Source: Escherichia coli (GTDB lineage Bacteria > Pseudomonadota > Gammaproteobacteria > Enterobacterales > Enterobacteriaceae). Taken from it: a stretch of DNA of 64,000 nt. The notes beneath the pieces were generated by a model. It was not told where the DNA came from. It was given only the letters and a program-made list of their open reading frames with translations, and did no database searches. Where the stretch lies: assembly GCF_044324785.1 (NCBI RefSeq), contig NZ_CP172127.1. One strand, 5' to 3'. Position numbers and translations under genes: made by a program. Positions 3,735 to 58,575 of the stretch are shown here, piece by piece. How positions within the stretch are numbered: position 1 is the first letter of the stretch; every line of letters begins with the position of its first letter.

Positions 3735-3782
3735 CCATAATTGGCTGTGTCAGTTGGTTACACACCATTGAGGTGTGTACTA

Positions 3783-4661
3783 ATGAAAATACTGCCCGTT
3801 GTCTCCACAAAAGGTGGCGAAGGTAAATCAACACAATCCGCAAACCTGGCTGGTTTTCTCGCCGATGCAGGTATCCGTACCCTGCTGATTGACGGAGATC
3901 ATGCTCAGCCCACGGCAAGCAACATCTTTCCGCTGACATATGAAGCGTCAGCCGGTCTTTTTGAGTTGCTGATGCGCACGGCTGACCTCAGTCATCCCGA
4001 TAACATCATTTCCCGCACGGCTATCGACGGACTCGATCTGATAGTCTCCAATGACCCTCATGAGCAGTTAAAAACTGCGATGCTTCACGCCCCGGATGGT
4101 CGTCTGCGCCTCCGGAATGTCCTGCAGCATCCGCTTTTTCTGAACAACTACGATGTCATTGTAGTTGATTCTCAGGGAGCACGTTCTGTCATGCTCGAAA
4201 TGATTATGCTGTCGGCCACTGATTCGGTTGTCGGGATGGTCAATCCGGTACTCCCTGATGTGCGCGAGTTTATTCGGGGCACTGTCAATGTTATGGAGAA
4301 CCTGCTGCCTTACCGGGAGCTGGGGATACCCCTGCCGAAAGTACGCACGCTGGTTAACTGCATGGATTATACGGCACTGGCCAGGAAGACGCTGGATGAG
4401 CTGGCCGGAATTATTCAGACCGGTCGTTACAGCAGACAGTTACCTGAAGGTGCGGTTTCCCTTCTTTCCACACAGATTTACGACCTGAATATTTACAAGC
4501 AGGGGCATGCGGCTGGTCAACCCGTACATCGTCTCGAAAAAGAATCCACACGTCGCAGTGATTCCGCGCTTGTCACGATGCACAGCCTGGCCTGTGAACT
4601 CTTTCCTGAGTGGAAACAGGCGTTTGACGGGCTGCTGGCGAACGGGGGAATACGTCAGTGA
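3783..4661 (+). CDS. ParA/Soj-family partition ATPase
   Basis: MKILPVVSTKGGEGKST deviant Walker A (KGGxGKS/T); first gene inside the ICE next to att repeat as in PAPI-1/SPI-7-type elements (recall); start chosen at ATG 3783. Confidence 0.85.
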   Translation: MKILPVVSTKGGEGKSTQSANLAGFLADAGIRTLLIDGDHAQPTASNIFPLTYEASAGLFELLMRTADLSHPDNIISRTAIDGLDLIVSNDPHEQLKTAMLHAPDGRLRLRNVLQHPLFLNNYDVIVVDSQGARSVMLEMIMLSATDSVVGMVNPVLPDVREFIRGTVNVMENLLPYRELGIPLPKVRTLVNCMDYTALARKTLDELAGIIQTGRYSRQLPEGAVSLLSTQIYDLNIYKQGHAAGQPVHRLEKESTRRSDSALVTMHSLACELFPEWKQAFDGLLANGGIRQ

Positions 4662-5527: not shown

Positions 5528-5735
5528 AAGGTATTTCTCTTCGTAAACATGTTGATTATGAGCGCAAATATGCTGTACGTACCTTCTGACCGGGGTCGGC
5601 AAACTTACCGGTCGGAAAATGTACAGACAGTTATGGGCCTTTTATGCCCTGCAACTGTTCGTCCGGCACCCGTTTTCGTTTTTTTGCATGGTGGGTTTGC
5701 TGTGAAACAGGCTCCGTTTGCCCGGGAGGTGGCGT

Positions 5736-7124
5736 ATGTCTGAACGCTATATTCCACGCTCCGTTGATGCAGAGCAGGCCGTGCTGGGCGGCCTGATGCT
5801 CGATAATGAACGCTGGGATGAGGTGGTACTGATGCTCCGGGGGGAGGATTTTTCTCTGGCCGCACACCGGGTGATATTCCGCACCATGTCAGAGCTGGCA
5901 ACCAGCGGTCAGCCGTTCGACCTCATCACGCTGAGTGAGCATATTGAGAAAACAAACAATATTGAGGCACTGGGTGGTTTCGCTTATCTGGCTGAACTCA
6001 GCAAAAATACGCCTTCTGCAGCCAATATTATCGCTTATGCCCGTATTGTTGCTGAAAAGAGCATGCTGCGTCAGTTGCAGGAGACGGGGAATGCGCTGAT
6101 TACGGATGTGGCCGCACCGGATGCGACACCACGCACTGTTCTTGAATCCGCTGAACGTCGGCTCTTTTCACTTTCACAGACTGGCATGTTGCATGAGCGA
6201 TGTGAAGTCAGTCTCACCTCGGCTATGGAGCTGGCGCTGCGTCAACTGGAAGAGGGACTGAACGCCGGCGGGATGACGGGCACGCCCACGGGATTTGATG
6301 AACTGGATAAGATGACCTGTGGTCTGCAGCCCGGCGACCTCATTCTTCTGGCTGCACGCCCGTCTATGGGGAAAACAGCGCTGGGCCTTACCTTCTGTCT
6401 TAATGCCCTGTGTAACCGGACCGATGAAACGGTATTTCTTTTCAGTATCGAAATGTCCCGGGAGCAGCTGATTCTGCGTGTCCTGTCAATGCTCTCCAGG
6501 GTGGAGCTGACACGTCTTCGCAGCAGCATGATGAATGATGAAGAGTGGGCGAGAGTCACGGCAACCATGGGACGCTTCATGAATGAAGCGTCATTCATCG
6601 GAGATGGAAACCGCCTGATAATTGATGACACCTCCTTCCAGACGCCGTCATCGCTGCGTGCCAGCGCCCGTCGTTATGTCCGTCTGTATGGCAGACCTTC
6701 CCTGATAATGGTTGATTACCTCCAGCTGATTCGTTCTCCGGACCAGGAGAACCGAACGCAGGAAATTGCGGAAATATCCCGCGCCCTTAAGGCGTTAGGT
6801 AAAGAGCTGGGATGCCCGGTACTGGCACTGTCTCAGCTTAACCGTCAGGTGGAGCAGCGGGCGGATAAGCGCCCCAATAACGGTGACCTGCGTGATTCCG
6901 GGGCGCTGGAGCAGGATGCTGACCTCATTATGTTTATTTACCGTGATGAGGTTTATAACTCTGGCACGCTGGATAAGGGCGTTGCTGAAATCATTGTGAG
7001 CAAACAGCGGCAGGGGCCAACCGGAACGATACGGGTGAACTTCGACGGCCGCTACACCCTGTTTTCACCGTTTGAACGTGGATGGAATTTTGACCGTGCC
7101 GGAGGAAATGCGTATGTCAATTAA
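5736..7124 (+). CDS. DnaB-like replicative DNA helicase
   Basis: N-terminal DnaB domain (AEQAVLGGLMLDN), Walker A ARPSMGKTALGLTF, Walker B IMVDYLQL; SD GGGAGGTGG before ATG 5736. Confidence 0.9.
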   Translation: MSERYIPRSVDAEQAVLGGLMLDNERWDEVVLMLRGEDFSLAAHRVIFRTMSELATSGQPFDLITLSEHIEKTNNIEALGGFAYLAELSKNTPSAANIIAYARIVAEKSMLRQLQETGNALITDVAAPDATPRTVLESAERRLFSLSQTGMLHERCEVSLTSAMELALRQLEEGLNAGGMTGTPTGFDELDKMTCGLQPGDLILLAARPSMGKTALGLTFCLNALCNRTDETVFLFSIEMSREQLILRVLSMLSRVELTRLRSSMMNDEEWARVTATMGRFMNEASFIGDGNRLIIDDTSFQTPSSLRASARRYVRLYGRPSLIMVDYLQLIRSPDQENRTQEIAEISRALKALGKELGCPVLALSQLNRQVEQRADKRPNNGDLRDSGALEQDADLIMFIYRDEVYNSGTLDKGVAEIIVSKQRQGPTGTIRVNFDGRYTLFSPFERGWNFDRAGGNAYVN

Positions 7125-8766
7125 ACGAAATCATTCCGTTGATCTGGGAGCTGCCATCATGCAACCGGGCCGTCAGGCCAGCACGACGGGTAACGTGGTG
7201 GCGCTGGGGGAAACACCGATGATTCTGACGCTGGATCAACTGCGCCCCAACCCGGATAACCCGAGGACCACGCGTAATCCCCGGTACGACGATATTAAAA
7301 GTTCAATTTTCTCCCGTGGACTGGATACGGTGCCCAAAGTCACCCGGATACCTGAGAGTGAGCCGGATATCTATATTTTCAGCGATGGTGGTAACACGCG
7401 ATATCAGATCCTGAAAGAGCTGTGGGAGGAGACCGGCGATCAGCGTTTCTATCGTATTCATGTGCTTTTCAAGCCATGGCCGGGACGGCTTCAGTGCGTC
7501 ATTGGTCACCTGGCTGAGAATGAAGTCAGGGGCGAACTGACGTTTATTGAAAAGGCCCGGGGTATCCATAACGCCCGGATGATTTATGAGGAGTCGATGC
7601 AGCGAACCGTGACGATCAGGGAACTGGCGTCACTGCTGACGGATGAAGGACTTCCGGTAAGCCACTCATCTGTCAGCAGGATGGAGCATACTCTGAAATA
7701 TCTGTATCCGTGGATCCCCGATCTTCTGGAATCAGGATTAGGAAGACCGCAGATCAATTCACTGTTGTCTCTCCGGCAGGATGCGGAACGCATCTGGGGA
7801 CAGTTTGCGGTGGCAACAGAGAACGGGGCGGATTTTGACCGCGTGTTTGGTGAATGCTGCAGCAAATTCAATTCACCGGAGCTCTGGTCACTGGAGATGT
7901 TCCGGGATGAGCTGATTGGTGATCTGCTGAAAGCGTTACCACATCCGGTGCTGGATTATGACCGCTGGTTGCTTGAACTGGATCCGCGGGAGCGTAACCG
8001 ACGTCACCATTTTGGCGAACCTGAGCCGGTGCTCATTCCCGCAGACAGTGATGCGATGCCAGAGCCTGCGACTGACGGTGTGTCGGCAGTGACGGCGGAG
8101 AAGAACAGCGGAAGGGAGCAGTCTGTGATTTCCGCACCGGCTGACCATGACACCGTCATGAATACGGAGCAATCCCCGGCTGGAAAGGCGGAGAGTTCAG
8201 TTATCGAACAACGCGAAGAACGCCGTAGAAAGGAAGTCCAGCCGGATATGTATGGTGGTGAAGAAACATACAGCGGCGATTACGAAGAGGATGGCGATAC
8301 CCGTGATGCTGCGGATCTGCCGGTAACGTCACCGGAAGAGGGGGCTCAGCAGAGCAGCGGTGAAATATTCAGTGAGCCGGTATTCAGTGTTGGTGAACTG
8401 GATGATATCGAATATCTGCAGAATGAGGCATTTCACCTGGCATGGGAGCTGGCGTCACACACAGGCTGTGTCGATGAGCTGGCTATGGACAGGGAAAGCG
8501 AACTGTCTGCGGGATTCGGCGCGGCAGAGGCGAATTGTTCTCCGGTCATGGCATTTCTTGTCAGACTGACCGGTGAGGAGGTTCTGCGGGTCAATCCGGT
8601 TTCCCTTGATGCACTGCTGATAGGCGGCAGTACTGAAGAAGACCTGCCGTTGCTTGATGATGAACATGCAGGAAAGTTGCTTCGCCTGCTGGGTGTGTTG
8701 CGTCGTCTGCGGGGGCTGCAGCGTATGGTGGAAGACGAGAGTGAGGAAGGGCGCGATGAATGCTGA
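7114..8766 (+). CDS. ParB-like nuclease-domain protein with acidic C-terminal region
   Basis: N-terminal ParB/Srx-like domain (LTLDQLRPNPDNPR...); SD GGAGGAA before ATG 7114; overlaps dnaB-like stop by 11 nt. Confidence 0.8.
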   Translation: MSIKRNHSVDLGAAIMQPGRQASTTGNVVALGETPMILTLDQLRPNPDNPRTTRNPRYDDIKSSIFSRGLDTVPKVTRIPESEPDIYIFSDGGNTRYQILKELWEETGDQRFYRIHVLFKPWPGRLQCVIGHLAENEVRGELTFIEKARGIHNARMIYEESMQRTVTIRELASLLTDEGLPVSHSSVSRMEHTLKYLYPWIPDLLESGLGRPQINSLLSLRQDAERIWGQFAVATENGADFDRVFGECCSKFNSPELWSLEMFRDELIGDLLKALPHPVLDYDRWLLELDPRERNRRHHFGEPEPVLIPADSDAMPEPATDGVSAVTAEKNSGREQSVISAPADHDTVMNTEQSPAGKAESSVIEQREERRRKEVQPDMYGGEETYSGDYEEDGDTRDAADLPVTSPEEGAQQSSGEIFSEPVFSVGELDDIEYLQNEAFHLAWELASHTGCVDELAMDRESELSAGFGAAEANCSPVMAFLVRLTGEEVLRVNPVSLDALLIGGSTEEDLPLLDDEHAGKLLRLLGVLRRLRGLQRMVEDESEEGRDEC

Positions 8767-9487
8767 TGCCGCACGTCAGGATCAACTGATTAAACGGATA
8801 AGAAAACTGCTGGCGCTGAGCCGGAATAACAGTAACCCCCATGAGGCAGGCCAGGCACTTTCCCGTGCTCAGGCGCTGATGCGCAAGCACGGTATCACTG
8901 AACTGGATACTGATATTTCGGTGATAAAGACCTCGTCATCAAAGGGGGCCCCGTCAGAAGCGGAAAAAGTTCCGGTATGGATGGGGCGCCTTATGCATGT
9001 TGTTGCAGAGGCATTCGGATGCCATACATACCTGGACTGGCGTATCACAACCGGAAGGTACTGGCGGCGGGTTGTCATATTTTATGGCTTTGGGGAGCGC
9101 CCGGTTGTGGCGGCGTATGCCTTTGATGTTCTCTGCCGGCAGATGCAAAAGGCAACAAAGGCGTATCTTTCAACCCAGAGCCGGACATTAAAATTGTCAA
9201 CCCGAAGGGCAAGAGCAGCCATGTTTCGTGACGGCTGGGTTTATGGGGTGCGTGATGTGGTGGATGCATTCCCGCTCACGGAAGATGAGACGCGTGTAAT
9301 GAAGACGTGGCTGAAGAGACAGCAATTTGAGGGAATGGCTGCCTTCCGGAATGTTAAGGACTGTAATGGTGGTGATCGTGCACGCTGGCAGGGATACAAC
9401 GAGGGGAAAAAGGCAACGCTGAATCACGGTGTTGGTTCCCGGGATCTGAGACCGGAAAGCCTGATATCGGGCGGAGGTGAGGTATGA
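8756..9487 (+). CDS. Conserved ICE protein, DUF2786-like N-terminus
   Basis: MNADAARQDQLIKRIRKLLALSRNNSNPHEAGQALSRAQALMRKHGI; SD GAGGAAGG before ATG 8756; family by recall. Confidence 0.65.
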   Translation: MNADAARQDQLIKRIRKLLALSRNNSNPHEAGQALSRAQALMRKHGITELDTDISVIKTSSSKGAPSEAEKVPVWMGRLMHVVAEAFGCHTYLDWRITTGRYWRRVVIFYGFGERPVVAAYAFDVLCRQMQKATKAYLSTQSRTLKLSTRRARAAMFRDGWVYGVRDVVDAFPLTEDETRVMKTWLKRQQFEGMAAFRNVKDCNGGDRARWQGYNEGKKATLNHGVGSRDLRPESLISGGGEV

Positions 9488-10062
9488 GTAACAACTTATC
9501 ACAGGCCACCAACGGGCTGTTGATGCAACTGGTGATGGATCTCAAGAGTGGCTATCTGCGGCGATGTGAAGCGCTGGGGCTTTCCCGGGAAGAAATGCAG
9601 ATGCTGCAGGGGCTGAGCATTGAAGAAATTCACTATCTGTCAAATTCAGAAGTGTCGGTGCTGCGGCTGGATATTAACCACAACAATCTTGTGCGCATGT
9701 TGCAGCAGGCGCGGACTGAACAGAAACGTCTGCAGCGAATCGATCGCGCTCTGGCGCTGGGTGGGTCTATCGAACTCATGGCGTTTTATTTTGGTCTTTC
9801 CAGCGTGGATGTGGCTGCGCGGCGTCGTATCTCCGGTATTGATGTTCGTCCCGGAAGGGGGATCACCCTGAGTGACGATGAGAATTCTGAACTCTGGCGG
9901 TTGTGGCAGAAAGCCGGGATCAATGATGTGGAGAGTGTGGATGGGCTGGATGTCATGATGCTTTGTGCTGAACAGATGAACATTCCACTGACGGCCATCT
10001 GGCATGCCGTCAGAGGGTGGCATACAACCGGAAATCCGGATCAGGTAAGGAGTGCGTCATGA
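9484..10062 (+). CDS. Conserved ICE hypothetical protein (SPI-7-type replication/regulatory region protein)
   Basis: 192-aa ORF translationally coupled to flanking genes; family by recall. Confidence 0.65.
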   Translation: MSNNLSQATNGLLMQLVMDLKSGYLRRCEALGLSREEMQMLQGLSIEEIHYLSNSEVSVLRLDINHNNLVRMLQQARTEQKRLQRIDRALALGGSIELMAFYFGLSSVDVAARRRISGIDVRPGRGITLSDDENSELWRLWQKAGINDVESVDGLDVMMLCAEQMNIPLTAIWHAVRGWHTTGNPDQVRSAS

Positions 10063-11537: not shown

Positions 11538-11747
11538 ATGGCTATTGCCGCAAGTTACACAATGCATCTCTATTGTGACTGCCGCCAGTGTACGGAAGGT
11601 GTATATCCAGTGCCAGACTTCGGTGAGTATATAGGTACGTCATGGGCTGGCTGTGCAAAAGAGGCGCGCAAGGATGGCTGGCGAATAAGCAAAGACAAAA
11701 CACGTGCTTTTGCGCCAGGGCATAAAGTTTTAAGGATTAACAAATGA
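11538..11747 (+). CDS. Small Cys-rich protein (possible zinc-binding)
   Basis: SD AAGGAG before ATG 11538; HLYCDCRQC...C motif. Confidence 0.5.
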   Translation: MAIAASYTMHLYCDCRQCTEGVYPVPDFGEYIGTSWAGCAKEARKDGWRISKDKTRAFAPGHKVLRINK

Positions 11748-12257: not shown

Positions 12258-12467
12258 ATGCAGACAATTTCGGGTCCTGTGATTATCGACAGTAATGAGG
12301 TGACACAGTTTTACCCGGACCATGAAAGTGGAGGGGAACTCACCGCTGTTGAGTACCTTGCTGACGGGGGAAGAATCACCGCGAGGGTGAGGCACTCTTT
12401 TTATCAGGTTGCTGCGGCACTTGCCGGGGCATGGCGTGCGGATGATGCATCAAAAAGCGGTGGGTGA
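12258..12467 (+). CDS. Hypothetical protein
   Basis: 69-aa ORF ending the small-gene cluster. Confidence 0.4.
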   Translation: MQTISGPVIIDSNEVTQFYPDHESGGELTAVEYLADGGRITARVRHSFYQVAAALAGAWRADDASKSGG

Positions 12468-12728
12468 GGACTGTGCCGGAATGATTGTCTGTTCCGAAGC
12501 TGCTGAGCCGCGACATAAATTTTTTATGTTGCGGTGAAGCAGCCGACAAACGAAGTGCGTCAGCGTGCTGGTTATTAAGGCAATATTTTTTCAGAGGAAC
12601 CGCAATACCGTCGGTATTAACGGTTTACGGGTAATGAAGTGTTTAGCCTGCATCTTTGCCGGGTGCAGTTATAAGCATTTCGGAAACCGTTCCCCGGCGC
12701 AGTCTGCCGGGATTTAAGGAGTTTATTT

Positions 12729-13994
12729 ATGGCGCTACCTGCAGAAAGCCTTATTGCGCATACGCTCAGAAAAATGAAGGCCAGCATGGCAGAGAAAGCC
12801 AGTCGTGAGGACGGGAGGATACGCAGTGGGCTGTTGTTTACCGGCAATGTTCACGATTCGTATCCCCGCAGGCTGTTGCTGGATACGCGCCTTTCTCCCC
12901 TTGATAAAACTGCGTGGATGATGATTCGTCTGCATGCCCTGAATAATGAGGGCGCAGTATTTCCGACGTACGATGAACTGCAGTTACAACTGGCATCTCC
13001 CGGGCGCGGGAAGGCGTCCCGTGAAACAGTGAGCCGGGTGCTGACAATGCTGCGGCTTACGGGCTGGCTGAGTCTGTGTAAGCGGGTCAGGGATGAAAAA
13101 GGGCGGGTCCGGGGGAATATTTACGCCCTGCATGATGAGCCACTGACCTGCTGTGATGCAGAAAAGTTTGACCCACGATACCTGGATATGGTTCTGGATA
13201 CTGTGAGCAGGAGCCGGAACAAGACAATCCGGCACACAGCCAGTGAAGTGCTCAGTGATATCAAAAATGAGCCCGGTATGCGGCATTACCACAGCCATAT
13301 CACTCTGTTTGAATCGCGTATGGGGGCAGCACAGACACCTGGTCAGCTGGCGGCGCGTCAGCGGGTGAACCCGATGGTGAATGAAAACACAGGCAGAGAG
13401 AGTGGTTCGGATTCCGTACATACCCCTGCACCTGTCGTGCAGGTAACCGAACTCAGTGCTCCGTTAACCGAACTCAGTGAAAAACAGGAAATGAGCCCAC
13501 TCAGTTCGGATTCCGTACTTCCTGAAAAATCAGTAACTTATCACTCGGTTCGGAAACCGAACAATTACGTACGTAATATCACACACAGTGTGATTAAAAA
13601 TACGTACGTATTGCCTGAGTCGGTGAAATCGCAAATCAGCGCAGAAGACACGGACATGCTGACAAAACAACTGCAGGCGTTGCCGGAAGAACTGGCAGGT
13701 AGTGTGCTGAGCAGCCTGTTACAGATGCTCAGCAAAAACACGCTCCAGAATCCGGTTGGCTGGATGCTGGCTGTGATGAAACTTGCGCGTGAGGGACGTT
13801 TTAATACGCCGGATATGTCCGTGCATGAATCCCGGTCGCCAGCCCGTGCACCATATCAGCCTGTGTACAACCGTGATGAACGTGAACGTCGTCGCGGGAA
13901 AGTGGCGTCACCTGAAACGGTGAGCAACATTGTCGCAGAATTCCGGGCCAGCCTGAAACGTGCAAATGCTGCCCGTCTGGCGGCGCGTGTGTGA
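12729..13994 (+). CDS. Putative ICE replication initiator (winged-helix Rep-like; SPI-7 STY4528-type family by recall)
   Basis: SD AAGGAG before ATG 12729; N-terminal HTH/winged-helix-like segment; internal peptide repeats coincide with DNA repeats/palindromes; followed immediately by a 36-bp tandem array. Confidence 0.7.
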   Translation: MALPAESLIAHTLRKMKASMAEKASREDGRIRSGLLFTGNVHDSYPRRLLLDTRLSPLDKTAWMMIRLHALNNEGAVFPTYDELQLQLASPGRGKASRETVSRVLTMLRLTGWLSLCKRVRDEKGRVRGNIYALHDEPLTCCDAEKFDPRYLDMVLDTVSRSRNKTIRHTASEVLSDIKNEPGMRHYHSHITLFESRMGAAQTPGQLAARQRVNPMVNENTGRESGSDSVHTPAPVVQVTELSAPLTELSEKQEMSPLSSDSVLPEKSVTYHSVRKPNNYVRNITHSVIKNTYVLPESVKSQISAEDTDMLTKQLQALPEELAGSVLSSLLQMLSKNTLQNPVGWMLAVMKLAREGRFNTPDMSVHESRSPARAPYQPVYNRDERERRRGKVASPETVSNIVAEFRASLKRANAARLAARV

Positions 13995-14008
13995 TGGTTA
14001 AAAGTCAA

Positions 14009-14836
14009 TCTATGGCGCTACTGGCACCATAGTACAAAAAATGAGCGATGGTGCCACTGACACCACGGTATAAAAAATGAGCGATGGTGACGCTGGCACC
14101 ATAGTACAAAAAATAAGCGATGGTGCCACTGGCACCATAGTACAAAAAATGAGCGATGGTGCCACTGGCACCACGGTATAAAAAATGAGCGATGGTGCCA
14201 CTGGCACCACGGTACAAAAAATAAGCGATGGTGCCACTGGCACCACGGTATAAAAAATGAGCGATGGTGCCACTGGCACCACGGTACAAAAAATAAGCGA
14301 TGGTGCCACTGGCACCACGGTACAAAAAATAAGCGATGGTGCCACTGGCACCACGGTACAAAAAACGAACGATGGTGCCACTGGCACCATAGTACAAAAA
14401 ATAAGCGATGGTGCCACTGGCACCACGGTACAAAAAATAAGCGATGGTGCCACTGGCACCACGGTACAAAAAACGAACGATGGTGCCACTGGCACCATAG
14501 TACAAAAAATAAGCGATGGTGCCACTGGCACCATAGTACAAAAAATAAGCGATGGTGCCACTGGCACCACGGTACAAAAAATAAGCGATGGTGCCACTGG
14601 CACCATAGTACAAAAAATGAGCGATGGTGCCACTGGCACCACGGTATAAAAAATGAGCGATGGTGCCACTGGCACCACGGTACAAAAAATAAGCGATGGT
14701 GCCACTGGCACCATAGTACAAAAAATGAGCGATGGTGCCACTGGCACCACGGTATAAAAAATGAGCGATGGTGACGCTGGCACCATAGTACAAAAAATAA
14801 GCGATGGTGCCACTGGCACCATAGTATAAAAACGAA
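14009..14836. repeat. Tandem array of ~22-23 copies of a 36-bp unit, each containing a 17-19-bp palindrome (A)TGGTGCCACTGGCACCA(T) plus an A-rich spacer
   Basis: Directly visible periodicity of 36 bp across ~830 bp with minor unit variants (cggtac/tagtac, ataa/atga/acgaa, gtgacgctg). Confidence 0.95.
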
Positions 14837-14964
14837 CGCAATTCATACGCTCAATCCCGTTAATTTTAAAAGGTTCAAATCTGTTTTCCTGTTGTTGTTA
14901 ATCCGGTTCTTTCTGACGATCTCACACTCAACTGGTGTTATTTCTGGTACTGAGTGGAGGTCAT

Positions 14965-15645
14965 ATGACTGATGAGAAAAAGACTGAACCTGGCGTGTTA
15001 AAAAGCTCCCTGACAATTAATATTCACACTTATTACGCTATTCGGTTGTGGAACGGTCGCAAGCCTGAGACTGGTGCTGATAAGTCGGAACGTCGGCGCA
15101 GGATCATTGGCATGCCCGGGGTTATTTCCCGTGCGGGTATCGCAACAAAAGATTCTGAGAACAATAATCCGTGGGCGGATGAATTTTTGTTCAGCCTTGA
15201 GGAAAAGCTGAATCACTCAAAGCAAAAGATTAATGACCTGGTTGAGCAGTTAAATGATGTTTTACGGGATGTGCCAGGGGATATTTGTATTTCTGAAATA
15301 TCATCAACCAGTCCAGTAAATATTGGTGTGCACAGTCGTTCACCTCTTGGTTACAAATGTGTATGGCTGCTTGTCGGGTACGATGAACTGGTGCTTAAAG
15401 CCTTTCAGGCTTTCCACTATGGACTGATTGCCCGATCACGTCGTGATGAAATACTTAATGCCGGAGGGCATGCTGTACGTCAGATTTGTGCTCTTGCCCA
15501 GGGATATAAAACTGTACCTGCAACGAGGGGTGATATTTCTTCTGGCTCACAAAAAGGAAAAGATGCGATCAGCCGCTATGGCATGCCTGATCCTGACATC
15601 CTTACCGGGAAGAAACGGTCCTCCTTTTCTGCACCGCTGAAATAA
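14965..15645 (+). CDS. Conserved ICE protein (PFL_4669-type family by recall)
   Basis: SD GGAGG before ATG 14965; conserved position before topB in this ICE family. Confidence 0.65.
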   Translation: MTDEKKTEPGVLKSSLTINIHTYYAIRLWNGRKPETGADKSERRRRIIGMPGVISRAGIATKDSENNNPWADEFLFSLEEKLNHSKQKINDLVEQLNDVLRDVPGDICISEISSTSPVNIGVHSRSPLGYKCVWLLVGYDELVLKAFQAFHYGLIARSRRDEILNAGGHAVRQICALAQGYKTVPATRGDISSGSQKGKDAISRYGMPDPDILTGKKRSSFSAPLK

Positions 15646-17940: not shown

Positions 17941-18270
17941 TGGCAGGGCTAACTTGTCGCTCCGGCGACCACCAATGTTCCATAGTGGCCTGTGAGGAAC
18001 GCCTTCGGGTGGCCCATGTCGCTTCAGCGACCACCAATGTTCCATGTGGCCTGTGAGGAACGCCTTCGGGTGGCCCACGTCGCTCCGGCGACCACCAATG
18101 CTTCATCTGACCTGTGAGGAGCGCCTTCGGGTGGTCAGTTTTACACCTCCTGAGCCTGAAAGGAGCTGTGCGTACTGAAGGGATATATTCCCGGAAGTAC
18201 GGGCAAATCTGCACACCTTTGAGAGCAGATGTCACTGCGGTTTTCCGTGATGATGAAGGCTTTTTTTACT
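17941..18270 (+). repeat. Structured ~320-bp element, copy 1 of 3 (three ~61-bp tandem units plus hairpin-rich tail)
   Basis: Unit gtcgctccggcgaccaccaatgttccatgtggcctgtgaggaacgccttcgggtggcccac x3, then tail with CTCCT/AGGAG, GTACT/AGTAC, ATCTGC/GCAGAT stems; near-identical at 46163 and 48465. Confidence 0.85.
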
Positions 18271-19165: not shown

Positions 19166-19723
19166 ATGGCTTCACGTGGCGTAAACAAAGTTATCCTGAT
19201 AGGACATCTGGGGCAGGATCCGGATATCCGGTATTTCCCCAATGGCGGTGGCGTTGTGGCGAATCTGTCACTGGCGACCAGCGACACCTGGCGGGATAAA
19301 CAGAGCGGTGAAATGAAGGAAGTCACTGAATGGCACCGCGTTGTTCTCTATGGAAAACTGGCTGAAGTTGCCTGCGAGTACCTGCATAAGGGGTCGCAGG
19401 TGTATATAGAAGGCCAGCTTAAAACCCGTAAATGGTTTGACCAGCAGAATGGTGTGGACCGTTATTCAACTGAGGTTGTTGTGGGCGTGAATGGTGTCAT
19501 GCAGATGCTGGGTTCATCGCGTCAGCAGGGCGCTTCCGGTAATGGTGCTTCAGCACCGGCACAAGGGGGCCAGGGACAGCCGCCGAAGACGACCGGACAG
19601 ACTGGTCGTGCTACCCGGACAACTTCAACAGGTAATGGTGCTCCACCTGTGGACTTTGACGATGATATCCCCTTTATGGGGATCGGGTATGGCATGGAAC
19701 GGCGAATTATTCATGCCATGTAA
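19166..19723 (+). CDS. ssb: Single-stranded DNA-binding protein with C-terminal extension
   Basis: OB-fold N-terminus ([28 protein letters not shown]...), Gly/Gln-rich linker, acidic tip DFDDDIPF followed by 15 extra residues before stop. Confidence 0.9.
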
Positions 19724-19769
19724 TATTAACCATGGGGCGATACGCCCCACTTTTTTATCCGGAGGTTAC

Positions 19770-20714
19770 GTGAGTGAAAAAGTTAACAAAATCACTATGA
19801 TTCATGACGGGGCGTTAAAGAAGACGCTTGAAGATCCCGCAGCAGTAAGGGACTTTCTTGAACAGGTCTTGACACACGATCAGATATCCCGCTGTAATCT
19901 TGATACAATAGAAGTTGAAAAGAATTCGTTCGTGACGGAAAGTTTGCGTCAGCATGCCTGTGATGTTTTGATCAGCATGAAGACAAACGACGGCAGGGAC
20001 GGATACATTTATACCTTAATCGAGCACCAGAGTTCGCCGGATAAATTCATCCCGCTGCGTATGATGCGATATATCCTGGCTGTAATGGAGCAACATGTTG
20101 AAAAGCATAAGTGTGCACCTGTGGTGATCCCCGTGCTGTTTTATCATGGTGCAGTGCGGCCATATCCGTATCCGCTGAACTGGGTGGATTGTCTGGATGA
20201 CCCGGAGTACGGACGTGAGATTTATGGCGAGTCAAAGCCATTCAGTCTGGTGGATGTCAGTACGCTTGATGATGATGAAATTGAGCAGTATCGCCGGATG
20301 GCGGCGCTGATGTACACCATGAAGTCCGGAACTCAGGGTGATTTGATTGAGCTGATTGGTAAATCGATCACACTGACGGATAAGTATGGCAGCAGCGTTC
20401 ACCTGAATACGGTGCTTACTTATCTGATGGAACTTTACCAGATGGATGTTGCTGAACTTTTTGAAGCAATATCCACACACTATCCCAGCCACAAGGGGGT
20501 GATTATGACGATAGCGGAACAACTGGAAGAGAAAGGCCTTGAGAAAGGCCGTGCTGAAGGTCTTGCTGAAGGCCGTGCTGAAGAGCGTCAAAAAGCGCTT
20601 GCAGAAACCTATGCATCTGTCCGTCGCATGAGTGATATGGGGATGTCAACAGAAGTTATTAAGCAAGCTCTTCAGCTTTCTGATGAACAGATTCAGGAAG
20701 CGCTTAATAATTAA
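19770..20714 (+). CDS. Rpn-family (YhgA-like) recombination-promoting nuclease
   Basis: DGYIYTLIEHQSSPDKFIPLRMMRY, PVLFYHG, C-terminal GLEKGRAEGLAEGRAEE repeats; resembles E. coli RpnA by recall; GTG start 19770 after GGAGG. Confidence 0.75.
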   Translation: MSEKVNKITMIHDGALKKTLEDPAAVRDFLEQVLTHDQISRCNLDTIEVEKNSFVTESLRQHACDVLISMKTNDGRDGYIYTLIEHQSSPDKFIPLRMMRYILAVMEQHVEKHKCAPVVIPVLFYHGAVRPYPYPLNWVDCLDDPEYGREIYGESKPFSLVDVSTLDDDEIEQYRRMAALMYTMKSGTQGDLIELIGKSITLTDKYGSSVHLNTVLTYLMELYQMDVAELFEAISTHYPSHKGVIMTIAEQLEEKGLEKGRAEGLAEGRAEERQKALAETYASVRRMSDMGMSTEVIKQALQLSDEQIQEALNN

Positions 20715-46162: not shown

Positions 46163-46478
46163 AACTGTCGCTTCGGCGACCACCAATGTTCCATGAGGCC
46201 TGTGAGGAACGCCTTCGGGTGGCCCATGTCGCTCCGGCGACCACCAATGTTCCATGTGGCCTGTGAGGAACGCCTTCGGGTGGCCCACGTCGCTCCGGCG
46301 ACCACCAATGCTCCATCTGACCAGTGAGGAGCGCCTTCGGGTGGTCAGTTTTACACCTCCGTAGCCTGAAAGGAGCTGTGCGTGCTGATGGGATATGTTT
46401 CCGGAAGTACGGGTAAATCTGCACACCTTTGCGAGCAGATGTCACCACGGTTTACGTGATGATGAAGGCATTCCGGAT
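46163..46478 (+). repeat. Structured ~320-bp element, copy 2 of 3
   Basis: Same three-unit plus hairpin-tail organisation as 17941-18270, with a few substitutions. Confidence 0.85.
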
Positions 46479-48464: not shown

Positions 48465-48775
48465 ACTTGTCGCTTCGGCGACCACCAATGTTCCATGTGG
48501 CCTGTGAGGAACGCCTTCGGGTGGCCCATGTCGCTCCGGCGACCACCAATGTTCCATGTGGCCTGTGAGGAACGCCTTCGGGTGGCCCACGTCGCTCCGG
48601 CGACCACCAATGCTTCATCTGACCTGTGAGGAGCGCCTTCGGGTGGTCAGTTTTACACCTCCTGAGCCTGAAAGGAGCTGTGCGTACTGAAGGGATATGT
48701 TTCCGGAAGTACGGGCAAATCTGCACACCTTTGAGAGCAGATGTCACTGCGGTTTTCCGTGATGATGAAGGCTTT
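48465..48775 (+). repeat. Structured ~320-bp element, copy 3 of 3
   Basis: Near-identical to copy 1. Confidence 0.85.
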
Positions 48776-58367: not shown

Positions 58368-58425
58368 AACGCACCTCCAGAATGCACGGAGGTACTTGAC
58401 GCGGAATTTTTATACAGGCATATTG

Positions 58426-58575
58426 TTGCGTTGCGTTGCGTTGCGTTGCGTTGCGTTGCGTTGCGTTGCGTTGCGTTGCGTTGCGTTGCGTTGCGTTGCG
58501 TTGCGTTGCGTTGCGTTGCGTTGCGTTGCGTTGCGTTGCGTTGCGTTGCGTTGCGTTGCGTTGCGTTGCGTTGCG
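58426..58575. repeat. Perfect pentanucleotide repeat (TTGCG)x30; (CGCAA)x30 on the mod-sense strand
   Basis: 150 bp of uninterrupted 5-nt periodicity, 58 bp upstream of mod ATG, preceded on the sense strand by ATG-AAA with SD GAGG. Confidence 0.95.

Follow-up and report, generated by a model that had tools for sequence, protein, structure and literature searches.

A 64,000-nucleotide stretch of an Escherichia coli genome (NCBI RefSeq assembly GCF_044324785.1, contig NZ_CP172127.1; hereafter the window) contains an integrative and conjugative element (ICE) of the SPI-7/pKLC102/PAPI-1/ICEclc family, which was matched in 109 of 5,426 complete E. coli genomes. A tandem array of 36-bp palindromic units (14012..14832, no strand assigned) lies in this ICE between the genes of an STY4528-family 'replication protein' (12729..13994, plus strand) and a PFL_4669/TIGR03761 protein (14965..15645, plus strand; Pfam AcaB, E 2.6e-74). 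The array is probably a tandemly amplified bisS/parS-type, centromere-like loading site for the BisD-type ParB-cytidine triphosphate (CTP) clamp of the same ICE. In related elements, the sequence of the palindrome (dyad) follows the helix-turn-helix (HTH) of the ParB-like protein (7108..8766, plus strand), and not the STY4528-family or the AcaB-family protein. The array belongs to a class of repeats that has been described since 2004; the new part is the proposed reassignment of its function.

Anatomy of the array

Tandem Repeats Finder reported a single array at 14012-14832, with a period of 36, 22.8 copies, 91% matches, 0% indels, and a score of 1306. The in-register reading gave 23 head-to-tail 36-bp units, in agreement with the 22-23 units counted in an earlier note on this DNA. 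The unit has the form ATGGTGCCACTGGCACCA[CG/TA]GTA[C/T]AAAAAA[T/C][A/G]A[G/A]CG, with few patterned variants. Each unit consists of a palindrome plus an A-tract, as had been noted: a 17-bp dyad (8-1-8), TGGTGCCA-C-TGGCACCA, is followed by a spacer with an A6 tract. The perfect 17-bp dyad TGGTGCCAcTGGCACCA is present in 19 of the 23 units. The first perfect copy lies at 14121..14137, and others follow on 36-bp steps up to the last at 14805-14821; the four array-edge units (14013, 14049, 14085, and 14769) have 1-2 mismatches. When both strands of the window were searched for the dyad with up to 3 mismatches, 47 matches were found, 46 of them inside the array. The shuffle expectation was 0.36 matches, and the lone match outside the array was put down to chance. 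This confinement to the array within the window is more in keeping with a loading site than with a dispersed operator. Multi-unit blocks also repeat within the array (for example, units 0-2 resemble units 19-21), as would be expected from unequal crossing-over.

The earlier note had concluded that the array is neither a CRISPR nor coding, and both conclusions held. The repetition covers the full 36 bases of the unit, with only some 10 variants of it, and there are no unique spacers. RefSeq and the NCBI annotation pipeline PGAP call the array a 'hypothetical protein' in several related loci (numbered with L here), on the minus strand in L001 (16306-16890), L002 (4320-4841), L005 (4320-4805), and L006 (4308-4919), and on the plus strand in L004 (4267-5232). 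The call in L003 is only 141 nt long, and the length of the called open reading frame (ORF) follows the array copy number. These array-derived ORFs are repeat artefacts. The same had been said of two 278-aa ORFs in the window, correctly, but these were placed on both strands; 14005-14841 and 14010-14846 are both on the minus strand, and the longest ORF on the plus strand of the array is only 130 aa.

The ParB-like protein and its covariation with the dyad

The ParB-like/BisD-type protein has 552 aa and matches TIGR03764 (E 2.5e-113). It contains the CTP-pocket motifs G95NTR98 and E137NEVR141, followed by an acidic low-complexity linker (about residues 300-440) and a helical C-terminus. The AlphaFold2 model of residues 1-315 (pLDDT, the model's own quality score, 84) has the KorB/Noc/ParB fold (Foldseek E 1e-6 to 1e-4, probability 1.0), and the best structural match of the N-terminal domain is KorB 8qa9 (E 1.2e-6). 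The HTH comprises residues 169-199 (7612..7704, plus strand), with a recognition helix that starts S185-H186-S187-S188. The full BisD architecture is present, including the length of about 550 aa, the long linker, the C-terminal domain, and a neighbouring DUF2857 (BisC-like) gene. Judged by these features, the protein is a BisD orthologue, and it is the proposed binder of the dyad.

The window was compared with locus L083 (strain YZLc1-3), which has a backbone 98-99% identical and a different dyad (TGGTGCCA in the window versus TGTTGCCA in L083). The STY4528 proteins of the two are 97% identical, with identical first 200 residues; the AcaB proteins are only 49% identical. In the N-terminal domain of the ParB-like protein, 15 of the 18 substitutions fall within a 48-residue HTH window (Fisher p = 6.6e-10). 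Loci L023 and L050 showed the same pattern, the ParB-like HTH changing with the dyad. SCU-106 and 2013C-3033 have the common dyad TGGTGGCA and STY4528 proteins that are 98.6% identical. Their AcaB proteins are 51% identical, which indicates that AcaB does not track the dyad. ICEs that differ in their dyads have the same or almost the same ParA, DnaB, DUF2786, DUF2857, and STY4534 proteins; DUF2857, which is unchanged between such ICEs, is therefore not what sets the specificity.

The dyad-linked variable residues sit at the N-terminus of helix 186-199 in the AlphaFold2 model. The recognition helix starts with SHSS in elements with TGGTGCCA, with NHSS in those with TGGTGGCA, and with DASS in those with TGTTGCCA/TGTTGCCC; HNSS, DNSS, or SDGH goes with TGCTG..., SQTS with TGATTAGA, and HF/HY-SS with TGTTGCAC. 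Among pairs with an identical ParB HTH, the dyad differs in 1 of 14; among pairs with an identical STY4528 winged helix, it differs in 8 of 19. The earlier note had offered two roles for the array. The first, a centromere-like site for the ParB-like protein, is strengthened by this covariation and by the orthology with BisD. The second, an iteron-like array for the Rep-like (STY4528) protein, fared badly, because the winged helix is identical across different dyads, no match to an initiator was obtained, and DnaA boxes are missing.

Comparison with ICEclc and pKLC102

The orthologue of the ParB-like protein in ICEclc is BisD, a protein of 550 aa with the motifs G92NTR95 and E136NELR140, which dimerises into a ParB-like clamp (Antar, Carraro, Gruber, and van der Meer, NAR 2025, gkaf802). 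BisD foci need either of two palindromic bisS sites (GAGCTATCCCCnGGGGATAGCTC), namely bisS-1 at inrR or, 2 kb from it, bisS-2 at ssb; the CTPase is stimulated by bisS DNA, and BisD spreads for about 50 kb, following the direction in which the ICE is transcribed (NAR 2025, gkaf802). Where BisD meets BisC at promoters, transfer competence of ICEclc is activated (NAR 2025, gkaf802). ICEclc and the window element belong to the same superfamily and share the order ParA, ParB-like, DUF2857, STY4528-family, PFL_4669, ssb/topoisomerase. BisD and the ParB-like protein have the same size and carry the GNTR/ENxxR motifs at matching positions, and bisS and the dyad are both perfect palindromes with one central base. 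However, the arms are 11 bp long in ICEclc and 8 bp long in the window, the sequences differ, and the two single sites of ICEclc contrast with 23 tandem ones in the window. Only for ICEclc have binding, stimulation of the CTPase, and spreading been demonstrated.

A comparable layout was found in L092, an ICEclc-like element of Pseudomonas veronii. One bisS-like dyad precedes its PFL_4669 gene by 139 bp and another follows ssb, 1.93 kb away, which matches the published ICEclc layout; its BisD-type protein has the same motif positions. This dyad layout, together with the synteny, suggests that the window array occupies the bisS-1 position. By synteny, the PFL_4669/AcaB-family gene would be the counterpart of inrR of ICEclc, and the STY4528-family gene that of orf96323. 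No literature stating that inrR is PFL_4669/AcaB was found.

The second informative relative is pKLC102 (NC_019202.1). Its array also lies between the STY4528-family and PFL_4669 genes, 3' of the ParB-like and DUF2857 genes, as in the window. The period and copy number are different (57-bp x 15.2 versus 36-bp x 22.8), and the pKLC102 spacer is G+C-rich, unrelated, and without an A-tract, whereas the window spacer carries one. Nevertheless, the unit core of pKLC102 is TGGTGCCAcTGGCACCA, identical to the dyad of the window. The N-terminal domains of the two ParB-like proteins are 49% identical, and both recognition helices start with S-H-S. With the dyad kept and both spacer and period changed, it seems to be the dyad, and neither of the other two, that carries the function. 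The pKLC102 repeats were reportedly described by Klockgether et al. in 2004 (J Bacteriol 186:518) as 16 x 57 bp and labelled 'oriV'. Arrays at the same position have been published (2004-2009) as the putative oriV of pKLC102, PFGI-1, ICEHin1056, and SPI-7, on sequence grounds only. The statement of the earlier note that no such array had been described for this ICE family is therefore wrong, and the pKLC102 repeats hold the identical dyad.

Arrays in related elements

Relatives were retrieved by anchoring on the PFL_4669 protein, which gave 75 Enterobacterales loci with a conserved gene order. In about 60 loci of this order of bacteria, the interval from the STY4528-family gene to the PFL_4669 gene holds 8-1-8 dyads, with 1 to 26 copies across relatives, the numbers from draft genomes being possibly underestimates because many contigs end at the array locus. 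The dyads are usually spaced by 36 bp, sometimes in 108- or 117-bp super-units, with the A-tract after the dyad. The PFL_4669 gene follows 137-225 bp after the last dyad. Outside the Enterobacterales, elements of Stutzerimonas, Ralstonia, and P. veronii carry dyads at the same place, as do pKLC102 and ICEHin1056. The ICEHin1056 unit is 36 bp long, includes an A-tract, and is repeated 4.6 times; the Stutzerimonas plasmid carries a pair of TGTTGCGG dyads at a distance of 56 bp; and in the Ralstonia element CTATGCCAcTGGCATAG precedes the PFL_4669 gene by 170 bp. From Haemophilus to E. coli, the spacer G-T-A/T-C/T-A5-6 is found at an unchanged position; Pseudomonas lacks it.

The sequence of the dyad is variable. 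The lineage half-sites include TGGTGCCA, TGGTGGCA, TGTTGCCA, TGTTGGCA, TGCTGGCA, TGCTGCCA, TGTTGACA, TGTTGCAC, TGATTAGA, and TGTTTCCA, and many of the dyads resemble canonical parS (TGTTNCAC|GTGNAACA) plus one central base. Both arms always change together between lineages, which is the signature of a dimer site and bears out the earlier proposal of a repeated site for a dimeric DNA-binding protein.

The copy number of the array is evolutionarily labile. In the comparison that the earlier note had named, 36-bp arrays of 8.1-25.6 copies occupy the corresponding spot in seven E. coli ICEs. The TUM1886 ICE is 97-100% identical to the window and has 15.8 copies versus 22.8; with 25.6 copies in L004, the array of the window is among those with the highest copy numbers. 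In long contigs or complete records, Serratia 106R has 4 copies and Serratia pE36_1 has 14.6 copies. The latter (L086, Serratia marcescens pE36_1, 113735-138207) is a complete ICE with integrase inside a 205-kb conjugative plasmid, with an array of 36-bp units (TGTTGCCAcTGGCAACA).

Several other features of these loci were observed. Contigs end at or beside the locus in L009, L030, L065, L066, L072, L079, and L080, which suggests that the arrays break short-read assemblies. Between the STY4528 and PFL_4669 genes, 0.8-3.4 kb of extra DNA is present in L019, L021, L029, L039, L048, L069, L070, and L078. Dyads flank these inserts on both sides, which suggests that the insertions landed inside the array. 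In L004 (5177-5230), L006 (4851), and L007 (9395), the units nearest PFL_4669 have a dyad, TGTTGGCA, that differs from the bulk of the array; in E. coli, such promoter-proximal units go with a divergent 'type 2' AcaB allele. These variant units point either to breakpoints of recombination within the arrays or to a distinct site close to the promoter. A five-unit 36-bp fragment (TGGTGCCAgTGGCACCA), ending in TGTTGGCA-type units, was found by blastn in the Salmonella Typhi plasmid pSTY-blaCTX-M-65 (IncI-gamma/K1; L085, 3560-3760). A plasmid function for this fragment was considered and rejected, as it adjoins 3' remnants of flagellin genes near IS26 and is apparently a captured chromosomal or ICE piece. 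A second palindrome family, CCCCGGTTCGGATACCGAACT (33-bp x 3), is present in Serratia/Pantoea ICEs (L023, 7445-7546; L052, 9132-9233; L076, about 9253). It resembles the ICEclc candidate 'bisS-3' CTTCGGAtTCCGAAG, which is not bound by BisD, and the 23-bp palindrome of the PFGI-1 'oriV'.

Gene context of the array

The plus-strand gene order of the window is ParA (3741..4661), SPI-7-type DnaB (5718..7124), ParB-like, DUF2786, DUF2857 (9484..10062), small genes, STY4528-family, the array, and PFL_4669. These are followed on the 3' side, also on the plus strand, by the genes for topoisomerase III, STY4534, and ssb, and by pilus and type IV secretion genes. The ParA-family ATPase is a possible partner in a centromere role. 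The DUF2857 protein would be the BisC-type partner of BisD; a 100% identical protein is named DUF2857 in RefSeq. The borders of the array given by the earlier note, a stop at 13994 and an ATG at 14965, are both correct. A 128-bp leader/promoter region with 37-39% G+C (14837..14964, plus strand) extends from the last unit to the AcaB-family gene, the first of a long plus-strand core block. AcaB is a ribbon-helix-helix-like transcription activator known from IncC plasmids. A sigma-70 promoter scan of 12400-15200 gave no consensus site, and no tRNA genes were found in the window.

Proposed function and alternative explanations

By analogy with ICEclc, each 17-bp dyad would bind a dimer of the ParB-like clamp, and this binding would, when CTP is present, make the clamp close. 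The clamps would then slide into the flanks, mainly downstream towards the AcaB/InrR-like, topoisomerase III, ssb, and type IV secretion genes. At promoters, the sliding clamps might meet the BisC-like DUF2857 protein and switch transfer competence on. The same nucleoprotein complex, together with the ICE ParA, might serve as a centromere-like handle for the excised element. Compared with one or two sites, 23 sites would give more loading flux and a higher local occupancy. We infer the binding, the CTP dependence, the sliding, and an effect of the array on transfer or segregation from this analogy. A wider proposal, on which the evidence seems to us evenly balanced, is that the 'oriV' arrays of pKLC102/SPI-7/ICEHin1056-type ICEs are amplified BisD-type loading arrays. 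Their copy number (1-26, varying between near-identical ICEs) would tune the clamp flux and the transfer-competent fraction, and swaps of HTH plus dyad would make orthogonal groups, without cross-activation of co-resident ICEs.

Several observations weigh against the proposal of a clamp-loading array. The Xenorhabdus loci L028 and L069 have an identical ParB HTH and different detectable dyads; this is the sole exception among the pairs, and it is real. A global mutual information scan of protein columns against half-site positions was tried and rejected. Its top columns were spread across ParA, DnaB, topoisomerase III, and others, because phylogeny dominates, so that the scan fails to separate ParB from the other proteins, though it is evidence neither way. 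A recognition code of one residue to one base (Q-A and N/D-C in several lineages) was likewise rejected: it is broken by Stutzerimonas, Brenneria, and ICEHin1056, and such a simple code fails across the superfamily. For the window/L083 pair, joint inheritance of the HTH patch and the array through a single mosaic recombination event could be an alternative to co-selection. Pfam-A found no ParB domain in the ParB-like protein, and its PDB sequence matches to KorB/ParB are weak (E 0.05-0.13). The conserved A-tract spacer falls outside the clamp-loading model, and family members in plasmid form require an origin somewhere in the module.

The last point leads to the published label. If the array were an iteron-type oriV, the STY4528 protein would act as initiator, bind the repeats, and recruit the DnaB-type helicase of the ICE to replicate the excised element. 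In known iteron origins (RK2 oriV/TrfA, P1 oriR/RepA, and pPS10), Rep monomers bind direct repeats that are asymmetric and about 17-22 bp long, and the repeats come with DnaA boxes and an A+T-rich unwinding element. The window resembles these origins in that the tandem repeats adjoin the gene for a winged-helix 'replication protein', so named by NCBI, which ends 18 bp before the array, and in that DnaB, topoisomerase III, and SSB genes flank the array. The literature assignments to oriV point the same way, and stand-alone plasmid relatives, including pKLC102 and Pantoea pPant4, exist, though the origin is not thereby located. However, the units are perfect palindromes and not asymmetric direct repeats. 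No DnaA box is present within 800 bp (the nearest TTWTNCACA are at 11652 and 15673, and the window has 8 versus 5.35 expected), and the flanking A+T-rich stretch, at only 37-39% G+C, does not make a strong unwinding element. In the model of the STY4528 protein, a single winged helix (about residues 57-132) is joined by a disordered linker to a helical C-terminal part. No significant initiator match was obtained by structure or sequence: Pfam gave no domain and only sub-threshold HTH hints, and a PDB profile search found nothing. Moreover, the winged-helix region stays the same while the dyad differs in the window/L083 and L023/L050 pairs as well as in the wider set counted above. Replication of ICEclc in transfer-competent cells reportedly depends on oriT and the relaxase (Delavat, 2019), and the homologous ICEclc site loads BisD. 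On this evidence, an iteron-type origin is improbable.

A pure partition centromere, at which the ParB-like protein and ParA segregate the excised circle without gene activation, is somewhat less improbable but still unlikely. Its model is sopC of plasmid F, in which a 43-bp unit is repeated 12 times in tandem, with SopB binding a 7-bp inverted repeat in every unit, and whose copy number exceeds the strict need. Both sopC and the array are long, strictly periodic tandem units, each with an inverted repeat for a ParB-family protein (a proposal in the case of the window). A ParA gene lies upstream of the repeated candidate ParB sites on the same element, and relatives in plasmid form need partition; pKLC102, which coexists as a plasmid, has a large array. 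ParA/Soj is reported to be necessary to maintain the circular form of PAPI-1. There are differences, however: sopC directly follows sopAB and has a period of 43 bp, the window array is 5 kb from the ParB-like gene with a period of 36 bp, and SopB has no transcription-activator domain. The ParB-like protein has the full BisD architecture with an adjoining DUF2857/BisC-like gene, and the array heads a unidirectional transfer-gene block. In ICEclc, BisD is required for promoter activation, and partition to daughter cells is deemed unlikely by the authors (NAR 2025, gkaf802). The partition and clamp-loading roles are not mutually exclusive. Action on transcription from a loaded clamp also has a parallel in KorB of RK2, the best structural match of the ParB-like protein, which loads as a ParB-type clamp at palindromes and acts on transcription at a distance with KorA. 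The KorB OB sites are single and dispersed round the plasmid, whereas those of the window are tandem; KorB represses over a few hundred bp, whereas BisD activates over tens of kb. The position of the array 128 bp upstream of the AcaB-family gene, and the invariably upstream last dyad of the relatives, would also suit an operator array through which this regulator controls or titrates itself at its own promoter. AcaB-type proteins bind DNA, and the 'type 2' AcaB alleles of L004 and L006 accompany promoter-proximal TGTTGGCA units. Such an operator is nevertheless very unlikely: L082 and L084 share one dyad despite an AcaB identity of only 50%, L010, L011, and L014 have three different dyads with AcaB proteins about 91% identical, and recombination breakpoints inside arrays explain the variant units equally well. 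Least credible of all are minus-strand intrinsic terminators or single-strand hairpins that act on RNA or transferred single-stranded DNA. In a simple scan every unit scored as terminator-like on the minus strand (8-bp stem, 3-nt loop, CGCTTATTTT), and perfect dyads could fold in single-stranded DNA. However, the T-run begins 6 nt past the stem, the neighbouring genes are all on the plus strand so that there is nothing obvious to terminate, and the pKLC102 dyad is kept without a T or A run. The complementarity reaches the bases flanking the single central base, which a hairpin loop does not need, and an Rfam scan found no family matching the array.

Other repeats in the window

Three further types of repeats were observed in the window. 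A 61-bp repeat forms three clusters of about 2.9 copies each (17955-18261, 46166-46461, and 48468-48773), which match the Rfam STAXI RNA motif RF01728 with two hits each (62-69 bits versus a gathering score of 40.5); one of them sits between the topoisomerase III and STY4534 genes. A perfect run of the pentanucleotide GTTGC (x 30.6; 100% matches in Tandem Repeats Finder) lies at 58425-58577. A 12/24-bp tandem repeat, AAGGCCGTGCTG, lies at 20533-20583 within the ORF 19491-20714, and is also present in L001 (22583-22681).

Implications

No link between the 'oriV' repeats and BisD loading sites was found in the searchable literature. pKLC102, oriV, and repeats all go unmentioned in the BisD paper (NAR 2025, gkaf802), and a 2026 preprint adds nothing on this link. 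In practice, annotation routinely mistakes the array for a hypothetical protein, and the array seems to disrupt short-read assemblies. The covariation of HTH and dyad provides ready-made specificity variants for the study of ParB-type recognition. The family of SPI-7, PAPI-1/pKLC102, ICEclc, and ICEHin1056 carries virulence, resistance, and catabolic genes across Proteobacteria. If the clamp-loading proposal is true, the published 'oriV' label of this family would probably be wrong, and the true origin would still have to be mapped. The BisD mechanism, so far known from ICEclc only, would reach the enterobacterial ICEs, and the natural series of 1-26 sites would be a test bed for site number as dosage control.

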